From the NCBI GenBank assembly GCA_018167975.1, contig GCA_018167975.1_4333.1: a stretch of 42,822 nucleotides of DNA. One strand, 5' to 3'. The first letter of the stretch is position 1, and every line of letters starts with the position of its first letter. Of this stretch, positions 1-42,822 are shown in pieces. The notes beneath the pieces are model-generated. The model was not told where the DNA came from. It did not search any database and worked only from the letters and a program-made list of their open reading frames with translations. A program made the position numbers and the translations under genes. Source of the stretch: a phage.

Positions 1-32
1 AAAAAAAAATCCCGGCTGGGTCAGGGCCGGGA
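1..32 (-). terminator. Rho-independent terminator (minus strand): 7-bp GC stem TCCCGGC/GCCGGGA followed on the minus strand by a T9 run
   Basis: Inverted repeat 10-16 / 26-32 with A9 at 1-9 on the plus strand (= U9 after the hairpin on the minus-strand transcript); downstream of the leftward lysis operon. Confidence 0.6.
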
Positions 33-103
33 TAAAACTGGAGAGCAGAGGGATGGAACAGGAGGTGATTTAAGTATCGTCGGATTGGTCTTATGTGTCA
101 ATT

Positions 104-264: not shown

Positions 265-750
265 TCATTTAACAGCCCTCCCGATAGCCTCCGCCTCCTG
301 CCACGGTTTACCGTCGAACAGCGCCAGACGGCCAGCTGTACGGCGGCGCAGGCCAAGTAACGGTTTGCCGTTCTGGTTGATGAACAGCGCCAGCTTAGCC
401 CGCAGCGTCGTGGTATCGCCAGAACGCAGCGCCTTACCCGTGCCTGTAGTAGCTGCAATCACACCAGCACCTGCGTTGTAGACCAGGTCGCAAATTGCGT
501 CAAACTGTGCCTGTGTTAATGAATGGTGGGCTGCTGCATCAACCGCAGCTACGGCCTTAGCCATATCACGATTCAGTAACAGGAGGCCCTGACCGGGTGT
601 GATGGTCTTGCCTGGCGTTACGTCAGGCCCGTAGTGCCCGTAACCGATAGTCAGGTACTTCTCATTCGGCGTAGCGCGGTACGCGGTTCCGCGGAACCCC
701 TCAAACGCAGCGGTGAAATGCAGTCCATTATCTGAAATGTTTCGAGACAC
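265..750 (-). CDS. Endolysin, GH24 (T4/lambda-type) lysozyme
   Basis: ORF 265..801; translation contains FEGFRGTAY...TIGYGH...LNRD, typical of phage lysozymes; probable GTG start at 750 preceded by GGAGG (rc of 759-763); alternative TTG at 801. Confidence 0.8.
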   Translation of the reverse strand: MSRNISDNGLHFTAAFEGFRGTAYRATPNEKYLTIGYGHYGPDVTPGKTITPGQGLLLLNRDMAKAVAAVDAAAHHSLTQAQFDAICDLVYNAGAGVIAATTGTGKALRSGDTTTLRAKLALFINQNGKPLLGLRRRTAGRLALFDGKPWQEAEAIGRAVK

Positions 751-1000
751 GCTTATGTCCTCCGTACGATAACCACGCCTGGCGAATCTGGCGTAGCGCA
801 ACTAATGTGATTAATGTCTCGGGCAGTGTTGGTGACATGCTGCCCTGTAACAGGTGGATGCATCCGGCAGCGCAGACGATAGCGGTCAGGATATAGAGCA
901 CCCGGCCAAATAATCCGTCGTCCACGCTGGGGTGGTATACATTAAAAAGCGATGTGCCCCCGATTGCCAGCATACCGCCGAACCAGAATAACTCATTCAT
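728..1000 (-). CDS. Holin/antiholin-like small membrane protein (2 predicted TM helices)
   Basis: Internal ATG at 998-1000 with GGAGG RBS 5 nt upstream; hydrophobic stretches FWFGGMLAIGGTSLF and VLYILTAIVCAAGCIHLL; located between the other holin-like gene and the endolysin, overlapping both. Confidence 0.55.
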   Translation of the reverse strand: MNELFWFGGMLAIGGTSLFNVYHPSVDDGLFGRVLYILTAIVCAAGCIHLLQGSMSPTLPETLITLVALRQIRQAWLSYGGHKRVSKHFR

Positions 1001-1301
1001 CTGTGCCTCCTCGACGTGCGATGTATTCTCCGGCGACGATACCAGAGAGACGGGAATAGATAGGCATCCAGAGAATAGCGATAATGAAGCCGAGGCCAGC
1101 GATTTCACGGTCGCCCGTGATTCCAAACCATTGAGCGGCAAGAGGTGCGCCAAATACAGCGCAAGTGAAGCCAGTTGCGATAAAGCAGAATCCGTCGATA
1201 GGGCCGGAAATAGCGGACTTATGTTGCCTTAGCCCGATTACCCCTCCGGCTAGCGCGGCAGCGAGAAGCCAGCCTGTCACTGTTTCAGTAAATTTATCCA
1301 A
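993..1301 (-). CDS. Holin-like membrane protein (3 predicted TM helices)
   Basis: TTG start at 1301 with GGAGG RBS 7 nt upstream; three hydrophobic segments (WLLAAALAGGVIGL, GFCFIATGFTCAVFGAPLAA, IAGLGFIIAILWMPIY); first gene of the lysis cassette. Confidence 0.55.
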   Translation of the reverse strand: MDKFTETVTGWLLAAALAGGVIGLRQHKSAISGPIDGFCFIATGFTCAVFGAPLAAQWFGITGDREIAGLGFIIAILWMPIYSRLSGIVAGEYIARRGGTDE

Positions 1302-1360
1302 GATGAATCCTCCAGGTGCGTATTAAGTATGCAGTAACTGGAGGATACCACGGCTAGGAA

Positions 1361-3337: not shown

Positions 3338-3368
3338 CTTTTGTCTCTCCTCTCGTTTGTGTAAATGA

Positions 3369-3397
3369 ATAGTAGCCTATTCTATCTTAGCGTGCAA
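3369..3397 (-). promoter_or_regulatory. Sigma70-like promoter (minus strand): -35 TTGCAC, 17-bp spacer, -10 TACTAT, with AATAG-N4-CTATT palindrome in the spacer
   Basis: rc of 3392-3397 = TTGCAC; rc of 3369-3374 = TACTAT; spacer 17 nt; same design as the promoters at 4831, 26106, 35159 and 37018. Confidence 0.5.
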
Positions 3398-4796: not shown

Positions 4797-4830
4797 AACC
4801 CTCACTCCTCTGTCTCGTTTCGATAAGTGA

Positions 4831-4859
4831 ATAGTATCCTATTATGTTGGGGTGTGCAA
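4831..4859 (-). promoter_or_regulatory. Sigma70-like promoter (minus strand): -35 TTGCAC, 17-bp spacer, -10 TACTAT, with embedded AATAG-N4-CTATT palindrome
   Basis: rc of 4854-4859 = TTGCAC, rc of 4831-4836 = TACTAT; the 37 nt 4824-4860 are an exact reverse-complement copy of 26105-26141. Confidence 0.55.
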
Positions 4860-8567: not shown

Positions 8568-8598
8568 GTCAATTACTCCTTAGTCAGTTGATATGTGA

Positions 8599-8627
8599 AT
8601 AGTACCATATTAATTATTTTAGAAAAG
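8599..8627 (-). promoter_or_regulatory. Candidate promoter of the Cro-like regulator gene (extended -10 TGGTACTAT, weak -35)
   Basis: rc of 8599-8607 = TGGTACTAT (TGn extended -10); spacer region carries a degenerate copy of the AATAG palindrome; back-to-back with the plus-strand promoter. Confidence 0.4.
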
Positions 8628-8631
8628 CCCA

Positions 8632-8661
8632 TTGACAACATGAATAGTTCGCTATTATAGT
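8632..8661 (+). promoter_or_regulatory. Sigma70-like promoter: -35 TTGACA, 18-bp spacer, -10 TATAGT, palindrome AATAGTTCGCTATT in spacer
   Basis: TTGACA 8632-8637, TATAGT 8656-8661; AATAG-N4-CTATT at 8643-8656; followed by GAGGAG RBS and the ATG at 8693. Confidence 0.6.
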
Positions 8662-11652: not shown

Positions 11653-11677
11653 AAGGCCCTTCATTGGGCCTTTTTAC
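11653..11677 (+). terminator. Rho-independent terminator
   Basis: Stem AGGCCC (11654-11659) / GGGCCT (11666-11671), loop TTCATT, followed by TTTTT. Confidence 0.6.
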
Positions 11678-17315: not shown

Positions 17316-17348
17316 AGAAAAGGCCCCGTTTGGGGCCTTAGTTTTATG
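17316..17348. terminator. Bidirectional Rho-independent terminator at convergence of replication (plus) and structural (minus) modules
   Basis: AAGGCCCC-GTTT-GGGGCCTT (17320-17339) followed by TAGTTTTATG on the plus strand and by TTTCTCTACT on the minus strand. Confidence 0.65.
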
Positions 17349-32507: not shown

Positions 32508-33557
32508 TTAAGCACCGACACCAGTTACCAGGAAGGCAATAGGTACATGCTTACGGTCAACAACGCGGTTCCAGTTGGAGGCGTTTGCCAGGTCCTGCCA
32601 GGAAGCAGAGCGTGCTACGGTTTCAGTACCGTTACCGGTGATTACCGCACTGGTGAAGCTGTAGCCCAGTGGGTGCAGCAACCAGGTCTTACGGGTCCAC
32701 AGGGTTTCAACACCGCCGCCGTTACCGCGAGACGCTTCACGCTCGTATTCCAGAGGGTTGGACGGGTTGCCCTCGCCGTAACCGATAGCACCGTTGCCGA
32801 AGATGATGGAGATGAACTTACGGCTAGGGCCAGTGCCGACTACGGTCATGCTGTCGTCAACAATCACGCGGTAGCCCTGGTAGGTGGCAAACATGGTGTT
32901 GTTGTCGGCATCACGGATGAAGTCGATGAGCTGTTGCTTACGCGCCTGTGCATACACAAAGCTGTGCATCGCGATAGCGCCCAGCACTTCACCACCGTTG
33001 CCCATCAGCGCATCGCCCATAGTCTGGGTAGCGTCGATGAATGCGCCAGCGTCGAAGCCCAGAGTAGCGGACACATCAACAACCATGTCGTTCTGCGTAT
33101 GGTATTCATCGGTAGCGGCTACGTTGTCGTTGTACAGACCGAGCGCGGTAGCAATCAGACGGCGTTGCGCCTGGCGCTGCCAGAAGTTATCCAGACGGGC
33201 CGCTACGGAGCGCAGCGGCTGCTGGCTGGTCAGTTCAACGGTCAGGTCTGCCTGTCCGAAGCCTTCGTTCAGATAAGCAACGCGCGCCATCATCTCACCG
33301 GTTTGCACATTACGCGGGGTAGCGATGTCCTGATACACGTCGTTCGAGTAATTAGGCTCGATAGACGTATCAATCGCTTTCCAGAAAGGAATGTTGGCGA
33401 TGCTGGACGGGCCGCGAGCAATCTCGGCAGCGTACGGAGTCGGGGTCAGGATACCGGACTGGAAGAATGCGGTTTTTTCCACCGGGTCCTCGGTCATGTA
33501 AGACGCCAGGACCGGGATGTTGCCAGTTACGATATCGCCGATAGTGGTAATTGCCAT
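32508..33557 (-). CDS. Major capsid protein
   Basis: 349 aa following the scaffold gene; TGAGGAAAT RBS; assignment by synteny and size. Confidence 0.7.
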   Translation of the reverse strand: MAITTIGDIVTGNIPVLASYMTEDPVEKTAFFQSGILTPTPYAAEIARGPSSIANIPFWKAIDTSIEPNYSNDVYQDIATPRNVQTGEMMARVAYLNEGFGQADLTVELTSQQPLRSVAARLDNFWQRQAQRRLIATALGLYNDNVAATDEYHTQNDMVVDVSATLGFDAGAFIDATQTMGDALMGNGGEVLGAIAMHSFVYAQARKQQLIDFIRDADNNTMFATYQGYRVIVDDSMTVVGTGPSRKFISIIFGNGAIGYGEGNPSNPLEYEREASRGNGGGVETLWTRKTWLLHPLGYSFTSAVITGNGTETVARSASWQDLANASNWNRVVDRKHVPIAFLVTGVGA

Positions 33558-33559
33558 TA

Positions 33560-34261
33560 TTATTTCCTCAGGGCTTTAAGTTGCCGTTCAAATTCGGCAG
33601 GGTTCGATTTATACAGAGCTAAACGCTCCGCTTCGCTCATGTCTTTAAACGCTGGTGCGGCCCCGCCGCCTTTGCTGCCGGAAGCCCCGCCGCCGGAAGC
33701 TGCATTTGCTTTAATCAAATGCGAAAACGCTTTGTGTTCGCGCAGGTATTTGCGGAACTGTTCCGGGTCAGTCGTGATTACGTTGCCATCTGCGCCTACA
33801 AACTTAGTAACCACGTCATCGCCTTCGAACTCAGTCTTAACGAACGGTGCGAGAATGTCCACTGCTTCCGGGGTGATAAAGTCACCTGCGAAAGAGCCTA
33901 ACACCGCTTTGCGTTCGCTGCCGAGGATGCGCTCTGCCATTCTGGAGATGCGACCATCTTTCTCGGCTAACACCGGGTCATACTGGCTACGAATCGTTTT
34001 TTCAAACTCGTCCATCTTACCAGCGGCTTTTAATGCCTCCTGGTGTGCGCGCTGCCGTTCTTCTTCGGCCTCTTTTGCTTTGCGAGCGGCTTCTTTCTTC
34101 TCCGCCAGCAATGCTTCCTGGTTGGCCTTAAGCCCGGCAACTTCTTTCTCAATCAGCGCCTGAACTTCTTCAGCGGTGAACATTTTCGGCGCGTCACCGC
34201 CACCGGCTTTATCTTCTGCTCCAGCTTCTTCCTGGAACGGATAACGTAAAAAACGATTCAT
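33560..34261 (-). CDS. Capsid scaffolding protein
   Basis: ORF 33560..34315; ATG at 34259-34261; charged, Ala/Glu/Lys-rich coiled-coil protein immediately upstream of the major capsid gene. Confidence 0.6.
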   Translation of the reverse strand: MNRFLRYPFQEEAGAEDKAGGGDAPKMFTAEEVQALIEKEVAGLKANQEALLAEKKEAARKAKEAEEERQRAHQEALKAAGKMDEFEKTIRSQYDPVLAEKDGRISRMAERILGSERKAVLGSFAGDFITPEAVDILAPFVKTEFEGDDVVTKFVGADGNVITTDPEQFRKYLREHKAFSHLIKANAASGGGASGSKGGGAAPAFKDMSEAERLALYKSNPAEFERQLKALRK

Positions 34262-34343
34262 AGTCAGTATGTCCCCTGGACGTTGGAACCCGGGCCACCC
34301 GGATTTACATGTCAAGAATAAATTATTCCAACATGCAAGGCAA

Positions 34344-34607
34344 CTATTCCAGAATATTCCTCACGTAATCCTGCAACATGAACACCTTCAGCCTCAGTTG
34401 CCGTACGCATTCTGCATTCTGAACGTCGGTAGCCAAATCCTCGTCCGCGTCGCTACTTGGTAGTGCCAGTTTGCACGGCGGCTGCATCATCGTCGTATCC
34501 GGGGATGGAATTGGCGTTTGCGACGGCGCGGGACTTGAGCAGGACGCGAGCATCATCGAAAGTGCACACGCTGCGGCCAGGCGTTTTAACGTACTTAACG
34601 ACTTCAC
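34344..34607 (-). CDS. Outer-membrane spanin (Rz1-like lipoprotein), overlapping the i-spanin gene in another frame
   Basis: GTG start at 34605-34607 with GAGGTGA RBS; signal peptide ending in lipobox LASC; Pro-rich mature region SSPAPSQTPIPSPD. Confidence 0.6.
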   Translation of the reverse strand: MKSLSTLKRLAAACALSMMLASCSSPAPSQTPIPSPDTTMMQPPCKLALPSSDADEDLATDVQNAECVRQLRLKVFMLQDYVRNILE

Positions 34608-34839
34608 GGGTGATCACCTCTGATTTCGTCTTGCCTTCGTTGTCAGCGGCTGCGGCCTTCGATTCATCCTGCTGCTGCCGTTGTGTTTTCTTCGCTAACT
34701 CAGCCTGTGCTTTCTGCTGTTGCTGCGAAACGAGATTCGCCTGGCCTTCGTGCCACCCGCTGTGGTATTGAAAGTAGCCGTGTGCGTATAACAGGATGAT
34801 GAAACATGCTCCTGCTACGACAGTTGCTTTAAGATTCAT
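34453..34839 (-). CDS. Inner-membrane spanin (Rz-like)
   Basis: N-terminal TM (VVAGACFIILLYA) followed by Gln/Ala/Lys-rich coiled coil; AAGGAG RBS; contains the out-of-frame Rz1-like ORF. Confidence 0.65.
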   Translation of the reverse strand: MNLKATVVAGACFIILLYAHGYFQYHSGWHEGQANLVSQQQQKAQAELAKKTQRQQQDESKAAAADNEGKTKSEVITREVVKYVKTPGRSVCTFDDARVLLKSRAVANANSIPGYDDDAAAVQTGTTK

Positions 34840-35090
34840 GTTTCTCCTTTCTCGATAAGTAAAGCCCCGCCATAAAGCGGGGCGCTAGTCCTTATCATTT
34901 AAACATAGAAACGGCGTAATCTCAGTAAACCAGTTACTTTTTACACAAGCAATAGAGTATGGCCCTTCCGAACGCGTCAGCGTAACTACACTCAGGACTT
35001 ACGTCCCGCTTCGTTACCTGCCCGCGCCGCGGTCGCTTGTTCATACTTCACAAGCTCAGGTGAAGCTTAGCATATTTTTAGTGAAAAGTC

Positions 35091-35106
35091 AACTATTCGA
35101 ATAGTT
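35091..35106. promoter_or_regulatory. Perfect 16-bp palindrome AACTATTCGAATAGTT (candidate regulator binding site)
   Basis: Self-complementary; shares the GAATAG/CTATTC half-site with the promoter-embedded palindromes; lies in the 380-bp intergenic region upstream of Rz and the 35222 moron. Confidence 0.4.
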
Positions 35107-35158
35107 TATTCCGACATTTACAATTGAGGGTAATAACTGGAATACGTAAACAAATAGT

Positions 35159-35187
35159 TTGCACACCCCAACATAATAGGGTACTAT
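35159..35187 (+). promoter_or_regulatory. Sigma70-like promoter: -35 TTGCAC, 17-bp spacer, -10 TACTAT, palindrome AATAGGGTACTATT
   Basis: TTGCAC 35159-35164, TACTAT 35182-35187; near-identical to the promoters at 26106 and 4831 (rc). Confidence 0.6.
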
Positions 35188-35221
35188 TCATTACATCGAA
35201 ACGAGAGATAAGGAATTTAGA

Positions 35222-35441
35222 GATGAACAAAGCTACCGCAAACGTGGTCCGCGCTATCGAAGAACTTTACGGCATTGATATCGCGAGCCGTGTGCTTATC
35301 GGAAACAAACGTAACTTTTTTACCTTTTGCACGGATGGTATGGAAGAGAACGATTTTAACAACGTTCAACGTTTTGCTAACGAACACGGTCTACGCAACG
35401 AGCCAGCAGGTTACAAGAAATTCGCTATATTCTTTAAATAA
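35222..35441 (+). CDS. Hypothetical protein encoded by a rightward moron
   Basis: ORF 35124..35441; ATG at 35222 with AAGGAA RBS; own promoter and terminator; opposite in orientation to the flanking head genes. Confidence 0.5.
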
Positions 35442-35470
35442 AACTAAGGCCCCGAAAGGGGCCTTTTATC
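35442..35470. terminator. Bidirectional Rho-independent terminator between convergent genes
   Basis: AAGGCCCC-GAAA-GGGGCCTT (35446-35465), U-tracts on both strands. Confidence 0.65.
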
Positions 35471-35930
35471 ATTCCGGCTTAGTGACCTTCGCCGCTTTAC
35501 TCACAGCCTCTACACCATCGGCATCAGTAACTTTAACGAAGTATTCGCCCGCAGCGTTAACCGTCAGAGACAAAGCCTCTTCCGGGGCGTTTACCACTTC
35601 CTTACCGTCTTTGTACCAGGTCAGCGCATACGGTGCTTTGCCTGCCTTAACTTCGACAGTGATAGTTGCGCTGCCGTCTGCCAGTTCAGCGTCTTTCGGT
35701 TGCACAGAGAAATACACATCGCCTGCGTCCACCAGATACGGAATCTCGTAAAGCATACCCGCTGCGGGTAGTGCAATACCGGTTTTATCTGCAAAAGGCA
35801 TGTCGTCTACTGGTGTACCTAGTACACTTTCGTCCCCAATAGACACCACGTTCTCACCGGAGCCAGACACACGAGCAAACTGGACTACACGACGTGAAGG
35901 CACATCAGTTACTTTGAAAAAGCCCATCAT
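35469..35930 (-). CDS. Ig-like domain structural protein
   Basis: ATITVEVKAGKAPYALTWYKDGKEV...AGEYFVKVTDADG shows Ig-like pattern; ATGA-type coupling with the head morphogenesis gene. Confidence 0.5.
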   Translation of the reverse strand: MMGFFKVTDVPSRRVVQFARVSGSGENVVSIGDESVLGTPVDDMPFADKTGIALPAAGMLYEIPYLVDAGDVYFSVQPKDAELADGSATITVEVKAGKAPYALTWYKDGKEVVNAPEEALSLTVNAAGEYFVKVTDADGVEAVSKAAKVTKPE

Positions 35931-36973
35931 TAATCCCCTTTCAGATAATCAGCGACACGTTTATCGAGTTCCGCCATCTGCTTAAGCGTGAGCGGATTCC
36001 CGAAACCATCTACAGATATTACGCGAAACTCTTCCGGCGATATACCGCTGTTACGGAAAATCTTACCGCGAACAGGGCCGAGTGCCTCATCGATAAACCA
36101 CGCCGGTTGTTGTTTCAGGAACTCGTAATAGGTTGTGTCCGCGCTTACCTGGGTTCCACCTTCTGCACCCTTAGCTGCGCGTTTTGCGCCCTTATCGAGG
36201 AAGTCGAACTCTGAACTGATTACCGGTGCCGTGGTGCTTCTGCACCCAAAATGGGCCGGAGGCATCGGCCCTTTCCCAATTTCCCACGTCATTCCGTCTC
36301 TCGCCCTGCAAATCGTACTGGTACGGCTGTCCAGTGTTGACACCCACTCGTACCTCTCGATGATATCGTCGTTCTGGCGGTACGTCTCGTTACGTGCTTC
36401 GTTGGATACGTGAGACAGCGCGGTGCGGATTACTGTAGCAGCGTATTTCTCTGATACGTCAGCCAGCCCACCTTTACCGACTACTTCTGTAACAATCTGT
36501 CGTGTTGTCTTACCCTGAACAAAGCCCATCTTAACTCCGGTTACAAGACGTGCTACTTCGGTTTCACCCCATCCCGACATCAGTTTAGTGAAGTCAACAG
36601 GCTTGCCACTTAACGATAACGGCTGAAACTCGGCAGCAGCCCACACCTGTTCGGCGGTAGGAGTAACAAATTCCGTGTCTACGTTGGTGGCCAGCGTCTT
36701 TACGTTCCACTCAGCCTCATACGCCGCCAGCTCCTTAAGGTCTTCTGTCAGCTTTGTTTGCCAGTCACCTGTAAGCCCGGTCAGTGCTTCTTCCAGGTCG
36801 CGTAATAGTTTATTCAGTCGCGAGGTGCTTCGCCCGTCGTCACCGAATAGCAGCACCTGCCGTTTGATTTCATCTCGCATTTCCTGAATGAAGGGTGTGA
36901 GGTCTTTCACTTCCCCGGACGCGGTGCGTTGCATCCATATCTGGTGACTGATTAGAGATGTAAGTAAGCTCAT
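35930..36973 (-). CDS. Head morphogenesis protein (SPP1 gp7 / Mu F-like minor capsid protein)
   Basis: ORF 35930..37030; ATG at 36971-36973 with GGAGG RBS; C-terminal TSTICRARDGMTWEIGKGPMPPAHFGCRSTT is the family hallmark. Confidence 0.75.
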   Translation of the reverse strand: MSLLTSLISHQIWMQRTASGEVKDLTPFIQEMRDEIKRQVLLFGDDGRSTSRLNKLLRDLEEALTGLTGDWQTKLTEDLKELAAYEAEWNVKTLATNVDTEFVTPTAEQVWAAAEFQPLSLSGKPVDFTKLMSGWGETEVARLVTGVKMGFVQGKTTRQIVTEVVGKGGLADVSEKYAATVIRTALSHVSNEARNETYRQNDDIIERYEWVSTLDSRTSTICRARDGMTWEIGKGPMPPAHFGCRSTTAPVISSEFDFLDKGAKRAAKGAEGGTQVSADTTYYEFLKQQPAWFIDEALGPVRGKIFRNSGISPEEFRVISVDGFGNPLTLKQMAELDKRVADYLKGD

Positions 36974-37017
36974 ATGCCCTCCTATAGTACCGCCAGTGTA
37001 ACGCATAAAAATAGTAT

Positions 37018-37046
37018 TTGCAGGCACCAATATAATAGGGTACTAT
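37018..37046 (+). promoter_or_regulatory. Sigma70-like promoter: -35 TTGCAG, 17-bp spacer, -10 TACTAT, palindrome AATAGGGTACTATT
   Basis: TTGCAG 37018-37023, TACTAT 37041-37046; followed by CAGGAGGG RBS and the ATG at 37072. Confidence 0.55.
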
Positions 37047-37071
37047 TCAGTTAACTTAAACAGGAGGGTGT

Positions 37072-37318: not shown

Positions 37319-37348
37319 ACTAAGGCCCCTTACGGGGCCTTTTCTCTA
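37319..37348. terminator. Bidirectional Rho-independent terminator
   Basis: AAGGCCCC-TTAC-GGGGCCTT (37322-37341) followed by TTCTCT on plus; overlaps the portal stop codon. Confidence 0.6.
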
Positions 37349-42737: not shown

Positions 42738-42772
42738 TTCTCTCTACTCCGTTCTCGTTGTCGATGAAGTAA

Positions 42773-42801
42773 ATATAATAGGGTCGTAGGTAATAGTCAA
42801 C
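42773..42801 (-). promoter_or_regulatory. Candidate leftward promoter: -35 TTGACT, 17-bp spacer, -10 TATATT
   Basis: rc of 42796-42801 = TTGACT; rc of 42773-42778 = TATATT; region contains AATAGGG/TAATAG motif relatives. Confidence 0.35.
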
Positions 42802-42822
42802 TAGTCATTACAGAAAACATAT

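Follow-up and report, generated by a model that had tools for sequence, protein, structure and literature searches.

In phage lambda, the spanin pair Rz/Rz1 combines an inner-membrane type II protein with an outer-membrane lipoprotein translated in the +1 frame; Rz1 is fully embedded, its mature form has 40 aa, and the S-R-Rz/Rz1 cassette behind PR' has this pair as its final cistron. The LysB/LysC pair of phage P2 lies within the P2 lysis cluster. It belongs to the overlapped class, in a sequence family different from that of phage Jersey (Kongari et al., 2018; PMC6139136). The T4 spanin genes PseT.3/PseT.2 are also unlinked from the holin (t) and endolysin (e) genes (PMC6139136), which makes linkage unnecessary for spanin function. 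The closest described system is the Jersey i-/o-spanin family (Kongari et al., 2018, BMC Bioinformatics 19:326; PMC6139136), which is of the overlapped class, with a 155-bp overlap and conserved Cys45/Cys67, and includes Jersey, SETP3, wksl3, SE2, K1G, K1H, K1ind1-3, AG11, FSL SP-031, HK578, and SO-1. Among these members, K1G, K1H, and K1ind1-3 are Kagunavirus phages. The separation of the spanins from holin and endolysin is already in print for the Guernseyvirinae (phage Schulenberg), and the papers on Golestan and fBC-Eco01 place the spanins near the head genes, with holins and endolysin toward the other end of the map (fBC-Eco01: PMC9825357).

The locus analyzed here lies in a stretch of phage DNA of 42,822 nt (GCA_018167975.1, contig GCA_018167975.1_4333.1), referred to below as the window. 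The open reading frames, their signals, their homology, the conserved placement and the circular map are observations made in this analysis. Region 33500-36000 finds its best matches in Escherichia Kagunavirus genomes at 93-96% identity (484 phage records matched). Judged by its joined ends, the window comprises the whole of a circularly permuted Kagunavirus genome (Guernseyvirinae), opened at an arbitrary point, because a 471-nt query made of the window end and start aligns unbroken to relatives (BUCT825: 100% coverage, 95.3% identity) and the related record Bas76 is circular. The lysis and head genes relevant to the comparison are the following.

265 to 750, minus strand: endolysin gene, Phage_lysozyme PF00959 (E=1e-26; listed ORF 265-801)
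728 to 1000, minus strand: second holin/antiholin gene, phrog_2508 (listed ORF 728-1153; ATG at 1000 probable)
993 to 1301, minus strand: holin gene, phrog_2359 (E=1e-29)
32508 to 33557: major capsid gene, flanking the spanin pair
33560 to 34261/34315: scaffold gene, flanking the spanin pair
34344 to 34607, minus strand: Rz1-like o-spanin gene, 87 aa, GTG start, +1 frame of Rz
34453 to 34839, minus strand: Rz-like i-spanin gene, 128 aa, ATG start with Shine-Dalgarno sequence AAGGAG (from the ORF list, phrog_2536, and homologues)
34614 to 34620, minus strand: Shine-Dalgarno sequence GAGGTGA of the o-spanin gene, read from the sequence within the Rz coding sequence, 6 nt before the GTG
35469 to 35930: Hoc-like decoration gene, flanking the spanin pair
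35930 to 37030: head morphogenesis gene, flanking the spanin pair

The second holin/antiholin gene has a homologue annotated at 273 nt in Bas76. An earlier note on this DNA had placed the spanin pair between head morphogenesis and scaffold genes, with the holins and the endolysin at 265-1301, and this arrangement stands; its distance of 33 kb from holin and endolysin holds on the linear window only. Once the circle is closed, 8,247 nt (~8.2 kb) across the window junction separate the endolysin stop (265) from the Rz start (34839) downstream of it on the same strand, and apart from small genes the interval contains just terminase, portal, and two head genes. The equivalent distance in Bas76 is ~8.0 kb. 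The window does not carry a classical contiguous cassette with holin, endolysin, and spanin in one operon, as the 8.2-kb gap and a canonical terminator behind the endolysin gene intervene.

The i-spanin matches phrog_2536 ('Rz-like spanin', E=5e-55), and against Pfam no family scored above cut-off (best DUF2514, 17.4 bits vs. a cut-off of 26). Its residues 1-19 are the most hydrophobic 19-mer (Kyte-Doolittle 1.76) with K4 on the N-side, and a single-sequence AlphaFold (AF2) model has helices at 3-64 and 69-83, at a mean pLDDT of 61 that falls below 50 in the C-terminal half. The protein is thus predicted to be of type II, with one N-terminal transmembrane domain and a mainly helical periplasmic domain, the latter predicted to carry Cys92. 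Rz1 begins 232 nt into Rz, shares 155 nt with it and extends 109 nt beyond its stop, which places the adjacent genes in the overlapped class. By reading, the signal peptide MKSLSTLKRLAAACALSMMLAS ends before Cys23, from which the sequence continues as CSSPAPSQTPIPSPD; it has K/R in the n-region, an uncharged h-region, the lipobox LASC and Ser, not Asp, at +2, as expected of a signal peptidase II signal with outer-membrane sorting. This signal presumably fits the PROSITE PS51257-type rule. The predicted mature lipoprotein has 65 aa, a Pro-rich N-terminal part and Cys45/Cys67; the whole protein counts 8 prolines. Two Rz-like spanin families match it, phrog_1267 with E=1e-17 at residues 8-86 and phrog_5672 with E=2e-29 at residues 41-87, and it has no match in Pfam. 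Cysteines for intermolecular disulfides are thereby present on both sides (Rz Cys92; Rz1 Cys45 and Cys67), and the two of Rz1 are kept in all relatives listed and in a Klebsiella homologue. The earlier description of the pair is borne out in its main elements: the overlapped architecture, with both ORFs in place, PHROG matches and the 155-nt overlap; the start of Rz1 inside Rz and its 109-nt extension; the predicted N-terminal transmembrane segment; and the Pro-rich lipoprotein with its LASC lipobox.

Set against the Jersey family, the window pair shows no difference of substance and is another member of it, with which it shares the sequence family, the exact 155-nt overlap, Cys45/Cys67 of the o-spanin, and a short i-spanin of 128 aa. 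By tblastn, its Rz is 65% identical to AG11, 61% to Ent3, 63% to wksl3, and 53% to FSL SP-031, with a partial match in SO-1. Guernseyvirinae pairs of this family lie between head-morphogenesis and scaffold genes as in the window. In comparison with lambda, the types of protein and their reading frames correspond and the mechanism is presumed to be the same, whereas the genes are overlapped instead of embedded, the pair stands ~8.2 kb from the endolysin gene instead of closing its cassette, and the mature o-spanin is longer (65 aa against 40) with a predicted C-terminal helix. There is no detectable sequence similarity between the two pairs, and no Pfam match above threshold; on these comparisons, the window pair is an analogue of lambda Rz/Rz1 and not a sequence relative. 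The T4 genes, of 'separated' architecture and situated among early and nucleotide-metabolism genes, are unrelated in sequence to the window pair, and P2 LysB/LysC has the overlapped arrangement in common with it. The pair, its family, its architecture, and its split from holin and endolysin are therefore already known and ordinary for the Guernseyvirinae.

The same placement recurs in relatives, a check that the earlier note had asked for. We compared 48 related IMG/VR loci whose Rz is 61-94% identical to that of the window, and all those that include the flanks run terL, portal, morphogenesis, Hoc-like, Rz, Rz1, scaffold, and MCP. A variable island separates the Hoc-like gene from Rz and differs in content among relatives; in the window, it holds an opposite-strand ORF (35223-35441) that matches phrog_7673. 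Nearly all Kagunavirus-type loci examined have a +1-frame ORF with a start codon and a valid lipobox, and an o-spanin ORF with lipobox was also recovered in the diverged, Jersey-like Rz loci L035, L038, L039, and L043, in a listing whose Pro-count filter excluded several other Jersey-type loci. The lipoboxes among the ORFs so listed are LASC, LSAC, LTSC, MSAC, LSGC, and ITGC, and none of these ORFs has Asp at +2. At the level of sequence comparison, the pattern across relatives shows that the second reading frame is under selection, because start codon and lipobox survive even a replacement of the signal-peptide sequence.

The head-module placement is annotated in Golestan, Bas76, fBC-Eco01, Ent3, FSL SP-031, Shemara, and GeorgBuechner. 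In the Cornellvirus phages FSL SP-031 and Shemara, the placement is the same, with 'separated' spanin genes and the pair bracketed by opposite-strand genes; in the Dhillonvirus GeorgBuechner, the i-spanin gene overlaps the end of the minor capsid gene. The lambdoid Klebsiella phage Kp4884-1 carries the same spanin family (phrog_2536, E=3e-45, and phrog_5672) in overlapped genes, with an o-spanin 45% identical to that of the window and a lipobox LCSC. Its gene order, however, is that of a classical contiguous cassette (Q-like antiterminator, holin, endolysin, Rz/Rz1, terS), unlike the window. Since one family occurs both in head modules and in a lambdoid lysis cassette, it is, on the genomes compared, a movable module, and its head-module position appears as a lineage trait of Guernseyvirinae and Dhillonvirus.

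We therefore regard the locus as very probably a two-component spanin of a Kagunavirus, of the Jersey family, placed normally for its subfamily and gated post-translationally by peptidoglycan. The N-terminal helix would fix the i-spanin in the inner membrane, with a mostly helical domain reaching into the periplasm. The o-spanin would be translated in the +1 frame from the GTG inside the i-spanin gene, processed by signal peptidase II, lipidated at Cys23 and sorted to the outer membrane, the last because its +2 residue is Ser rather than Asp. The two proteins would then bind via their C-terminal parts, and the complex would span the periplasm through the peptidoglycan mesh. Spanin complexes accumulate harmlessly through the late period, restrained by peptidoglycan until the endolysin acts. 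Holin-mediated release or activation of the endolysin, followed by degradation of the wall, would set the complexes free to act, and they would disrupt (fuse) the outer membrane as the last lysis step. We infer topology, complex formation, membrane disruption, and gating from established spanin biology. The spanin genes would head the scaffold/capsid unit of the late structural block, and the spanins would need only late synthesis alongside the virion proteins, because peptidoglycan gates their action after translation. Likewise, since it is the removal of peptidoglycan by endolysin that releases the complexes, the holin would set the timing of lysis wherever the spanin genes sit. The claim that the split location implies a separate regulation of outer-membrane disruption does not follow, in view of peptidoglycan gating and of the unlinked T4 spanins (PMC6139136).

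A regulatory role of the upstream intergenic region had also been proposed, and the signals in and around it are listed here. On the minus strand, the order toward Rz is the 20-mer, the palindrome, the promoter-like site, a three-helix domain of ~110 nt, an A/U-rich stretch, and the hairpin.

1 to 33, minus strand: predicted canonical intrinsic terminator directly after the endolysin gene (8-bp stem and U9)
42800 to 42772: predicted near-consensus promoter TTGACT-17-TATATT, after the endolysin terminator
37341 to 37322: predicted terminator after the portal gene
35446 to 35465, strand-neutral: predicted bidirectional terminator AAGGCCCC-N4-GGGGCCTT, at the end of both the head-morphogenesis/Hoc-like unit and the ORF on the opposite strand
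35171 to 35190, minus strand: copy of the genome-wide 20-mer TGAATAGTACCCTATTATGT, promoter/operator-like
35091 to 35106, strand-neutral: perfect 16-bp palindrome AACTATTCGAATAGTT, operator-like, overlapping the -35 hexamer by 2 bp
35064 to 35092, minus strand: predicted sigma70-like promoter with -35 TTGACT, a 17-nt spacer ending in TGn, and -10 TAAGCT (predicted start ~35057)
34955 to 35063, minus strand: conserved, apparently structured three-helix domain with P1, a long P2, and an apical P3 with a GNRA-like loop (covariance model)
34864 to 34883, minus strand: terminator-like hairpin, G+C-rich (GCCCCGC-N6-GCGGGGC), 24 nt away from the Rz ATG, with UUUACUUAU behind it
32492 to 32471: predicted terminator after the capsid gene

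The bidirectional terminator motif has 4 exact copies against 0.01 expected by chance, and the 20-mer has 7 against 0.01. The latter is identical to the consensus that PHIRE gave as a 'phage promoter' in fBC-Eco01 (PMC9825357); a role for it in linking the late units of all Guernseyvirinae was rejected, as it occurs in Ent3 only in early-type promoters. At the promoter-like site, the -35 hexamer and TGnTA(A/C)GCT are kept in the alignment of Kagunavirus and Jersey types, and a 'host promoter' has been predicted at the homologous place in fBC-Eco01. Exact copies of TAGTTGACTWTT occur only there and at 42792-42803. The perfect palindrome described earlier is present, although its presence alone means little, because ~0.65 such palindromes are expected by chance in 42.8 kb (arithmetic estimate). 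In phages of the Jersey type, however, another dyad that is nearly perfect, TACTTTAT-TC-AAAAAGTA, keeps this register with respect to the -35 hexamer, and dyads of different sequence in one register suggest a protein-binding site. A single further near-match to the palindrome, with 3 mismatches at 1359-1374, lies immediately upstream of the holin gene; it was considered as an operator common to holin and spanin and is treated as chance, because it is conserved in neither Bas76 nor Ent3. Separate transcription of the spanin pair from the intergenic region is plausible, given the predicted terminators after the endolysin gene and between the head modules and the promoter-like site upstream of Rz. 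This part of the earlier proposal thus gains predicted support, from the terminators and from a promoter-like element that overlaps the palindrome, while separate control of outer-membrane disruption is not implied by it.

The leader that follows the promoter-like site is highly conserved and apparently structured. Its 261 nt are shared at 95-99% identity by 178 phage records of Escherichia and Salmonella phages. Most relatives have no better-conserved segment among those compared, with the leader at 96-99%, Rz at 90-95%, and Hoc at 85-95%; L007 (93%) and L028 (84%) are the exceptions. In L035, L036, L038, and L049, the leader reaches ~96-97% against only 76-83% for Rz. The covariance model R1, built from Kagunavirus-type sequences, matches Jersey-type leaders at the homologous place (31-38 bits, E ~1e-5 to 1e-7) and finds the leader exactly once per genome; in Cornellvirus and Dhillonvirus loci the model found no copy, and blastn-short found no other copy within the window. 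In the alignment, which is fitted to the model and comprises few independent lineages, 96.8% of cells are paired as compared to 26-41% in slid-partner controls, and 14 of the 29 pairs have double-sided changes. An Rfam scan of 34700-35600 at E<=10 gave nothing at gathering score; its best match, Histone3 (E=1.3e-4), was set aside as merely the bidirectional terminator hairpin. The hairpin before Rz (-23 kcal/mol, z=-4.9) carries compensatory changes in three lineages, namely GCCCTGC/GCAGGGC in L017, GCCCGGC/GCCGGGC in the Jersey type, and GCCCGAC/GTCGGGC in L045. In fBC-Eco01, ARNold scored the hairpin as a terminator. The U-tract behind it is weak, above all in the Jersey type (UUAGCGUAU), and no antiterminator sequence complementary to the hairpin arms was seen by eye. 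The leader is a real and conserved element that probably acts at the RNA level; it may stabilize the 5' end of the scaffold/capsid message, which is heavily expressed, or serve as a conditional terminator, as an antitermination leader, or as a small RNA.

These elements invite a reading in which the spanins are under a dedicated checkpoint, that is, a promoter with a palindromic operator, the ~200-nt leader and the hairpin would set the timing or amount of transcription into Rz/Rz1 and scaffold/capsid, so that outer-membrane disruption would be regulated apart from holin and endolysin. The canonical terminator behind the endolysin gene and the terminators that cut the head block (37341-37322 and 35465-35446) are in line with it, as are the conserved promoter-like site with its dyad, a structured and covarying leader, better conserved than any other stretch in the majority of the relatives compared, and the compensatory changes in a hairpin only 24 nt before Rz. 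In Cornellvirus, moreover, the pair forms an isolated two-gene unit between opposite-strand genes, also with a long leader. We nevertheless consider such a checkpoint unlikely. Termination may fail at the poor U-tract behind the hairpin, especially that of the Jersey type, and the Dhillonvirus i-spanin gene, overlapping the minor-capsid gene before it, has no leader. The spanin family does not need control of this kind, because the lambdoid Klebsiella phage has it in an ordinary lysis cassette. Peptidoglycan would gate spanin action regardless of expression, and the leader of the window phage stands just as much before the scaffold and capsid genes, which have the greatest need of high expression.

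With about the same low probability, the ~200 nt between 35092-35064 and 34883-34864 might be an undescribed regulatory RNA of the Guernseyvirinae, either a leader that gates read-through or a small RNA of ~200 nt ending at the hairpin. As a gating leader, it would resemble lambda PR'/6S RNA/tR' or the put RNA of HK022, in a promoter-proximal position and with read-through into spanin, scaffold, and capsid genes. Were this the case, the last lysis step and the capsid shell genes would come under one RNA-based checkpoint, apart from holin and endolysin. The leader is not needed to explain the spanin pair, for which the peptidoglycan-gated Jersey-family spanin remains the preferred reading.

It is far less probable that the conserved stretch before Rz encodes a small protein of 36-39 aa, as Bas76 and fBC-Eco01 have it annotated, and is not an RNA element. 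A small ORF does exist at 34934-35044, is annotated as hypothetical in those two records, and contains a short peptide stretch, AFGRA.LYC, that recurs in several variants. Its start codon, frame, and C-terminus, however, are not conserved: indels shift the frame in L003, L007, L011, and L018, the start differs in L028, and the Jersey-type ends differ. It has no Shine-Dalgarno sequence, and the substitutions in the leader are pairwise-compensatory in the predicted helices. As a gene, it was rejected for its frameshifts and non-conserved ends.

A last question concerns the start of the o-spanin. The RefSeq records of Golestan (NC_042084) and Ent3 (NC_024204), as well as Bas76 (PQ850632) and fBC-Eco01 (OM272052), annotate it at only 144-147 nt, from Met41. 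This 47-aa fragment (MMQPPCK...) is without a signal peptide, and phrog_5672, a profile of 47 residues, was built from it. That only this short ORF of the RefSeq/Pharokka annotation is real, so that 'Rz1' would be a non-lipoprotein and something other than an o-spanin, has in its favor these four annotations and the length of the profile and is scarcely credible against the 40 codons upstream of it, which are open in every relative listed and always carry a start codon and a valid lipobox there even if their sequence is replaced, the good Shine-Dalgarno sequence before the GTG, the phrog_1267 alignment over residues 8-86, a 45%-identical homologue alignable from the signal peptide onward, and the very frequent mis-calling of o-spanin starts (Kongari et al.; PMC6139136). 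The 87-aa ORF is the biologically sensible version.

Altogether, the finding itself changes little, as the family, its architecture, and its separation from the other lysis genes have been published and can be seen in dozens of annotated genomes. Its consequences are partly practical: many public records, including RefSeq, as well as PHROG 5672, carry a truncated 47-aa o-spanin without its lipoprotein signal, and distances on linearized, circularly permuted phage genomes can mislead, here 33 kb as compared to 8.2 kb. The conserved structured leader upstream of Rz, unannotated and without an Rfam match, is the only element that could repay experiments. For the spanins themselves, the occurrence of one family both in a lambdoid cassette and in head modules provides a clean natural example of their uncoupling from the lysis cassette.

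The Rz gene of the overlapped spanin pair is preceded by a structured leader that combines a promoter-like site with a helical domain and a terminator-like hairpin:

34855-35092, minus strand: leader of about 200 nt, comprising a promoter-like site, a three-helix domain of about 110 nt and a terminator-like hairpin

Counterparts occupy homologous places in the related phage loci L003-L049, L055 and L056. Across 178 phage records the leader is 95-99% identical. It exceeds most of the flanking genes in conservation, and compensatory changes are present within it. It contains no conserved open reading frame, and a search of Rfam with its sequence returned no match. Inspection by eye revealed that the leader also carries a short direct repeat, with copies about 105 nt apart (approximately 35054-35041 and 34945-34928, minus strand), whose sequence varies from clade to clade yet is duplicated inside each clade. 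Two copies of GCTTGTG..AAGTA are present in Kagunavirus-type leaders and two of GCTTTCAG..TA in the Jersey-type leaders of L039-L048. Judged by eye from the sequence, the ACAAGC of Kagunavirus-type leaders can pair with either copy, which would permit alternative structures.

The promoter-like region of the leader shares an extended -35 motif, TAGTTGACT(A/T)TT, with only one other place in the genome; both exact matches lie on the late strand, immediately 3' of a terminator:

42772-42803, minus strand: site with the extended -35 motif, preceding small genes and terminase
35084-35095, minus strand: extended -35 motif preceding the spanin leader

In four related loci (L035, L036, L038 and L049) the decoration gene Hoc and the leader are of Kagunavirus type, with 87-97% nucleotide identity to the window, and are joined to Jersey-like Rz/Rz1 genes at 73-83%. 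This places a recombination junction at the start of Rz or immediately before it, adjoining the conserved hairpin and ribosome-binding site. A Jersey-family overlapped spanin pair also occurs in the unannotated Klebsiella phage Kp4884-1 (L177), a lambdoid phage in which it belongs to a classical contiguous lysis cassette that is followed by an HNH endonuclease gene and terS:

L177, 1156-3960: Q-like antiterminator, holin, endolysin and spanin pair

In public annotations and in phrog_5672 the o-spanin is given as a fragment of 47-48 aa starting at Met41, without the lipoprotein signal peptide. Two RefSeq records are among those affected:

L001, 4845-4988; L002, 4845-4988; L056, 6339-6482; L051, 2110-2256: shortened o-spanin annotations

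The borders of the structural-gene units are marked by a repeated bidirectional terminator hairpin, which adjoins slots that in relatives hold inserted genes on the opposite strand (amidase, PAPS reductase, phosphatase and HNH endonuclease):

17320-17339, 27937-27956, 35446-35465 and 37322-37341: AAGGCCCC-N4-GGGGCCTT, then AGTTTTAT
11653-11672: weaker copy of the AAGGCCCC-N4-GGGGCCTT hairpin

Separating the Hoc-like gene from the spanin leader is a variable island with an opposite-strand reading frame that had no match in Pfam; in relatives the slot is filled by unrelated genes:

35223-35441, plus strand: 72-aa ORF, phrog_7673 'internal head protein' (E=1.5e-25)

A further stable hairpin lies directly 5' of the holin start at 1301:

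1302-1345, minus strand: hairpin of -20.8 kcal/mol (z=-3.6)

In its predicted fold AUCCUCCAG pairs with CCUGGAGGAU, which would sequester the holin Shine-Dalgarno sequence. Ent3, a related phage, has a different hairpin with a U-run at the equivalent place. The element may control the holin at the level of translation or of termination.

To our knowledge, these phages have no RNA polymerase gene. A 20-mer, TGAATAGTA(C/T)CCTATTAT(A/G)T, occurs seven times in the window, where 0.01 copies would be expected; every copy is on the coding strand and 5' of a gene block:

3366-3385, 4828-4847, 8596-8615 and 8641-8660, plus strand: 20-mer, sequence match
26118-26137, 35171-35190 and 37030-37049, minus strand: 20-mer, sequence match

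It contains the dyad AATAG-N4-CTATT, and in three early promoters (8632, 10920 and 15030) the TTGACA-TATAGT spacer is filled by a related dyad. The 20-mer is identical to the 'phage promoter' consensus published for the related phage fBC-Eco01 (PMC9825357). It probably represents a class of operators or promoters that serves a phage regulator.
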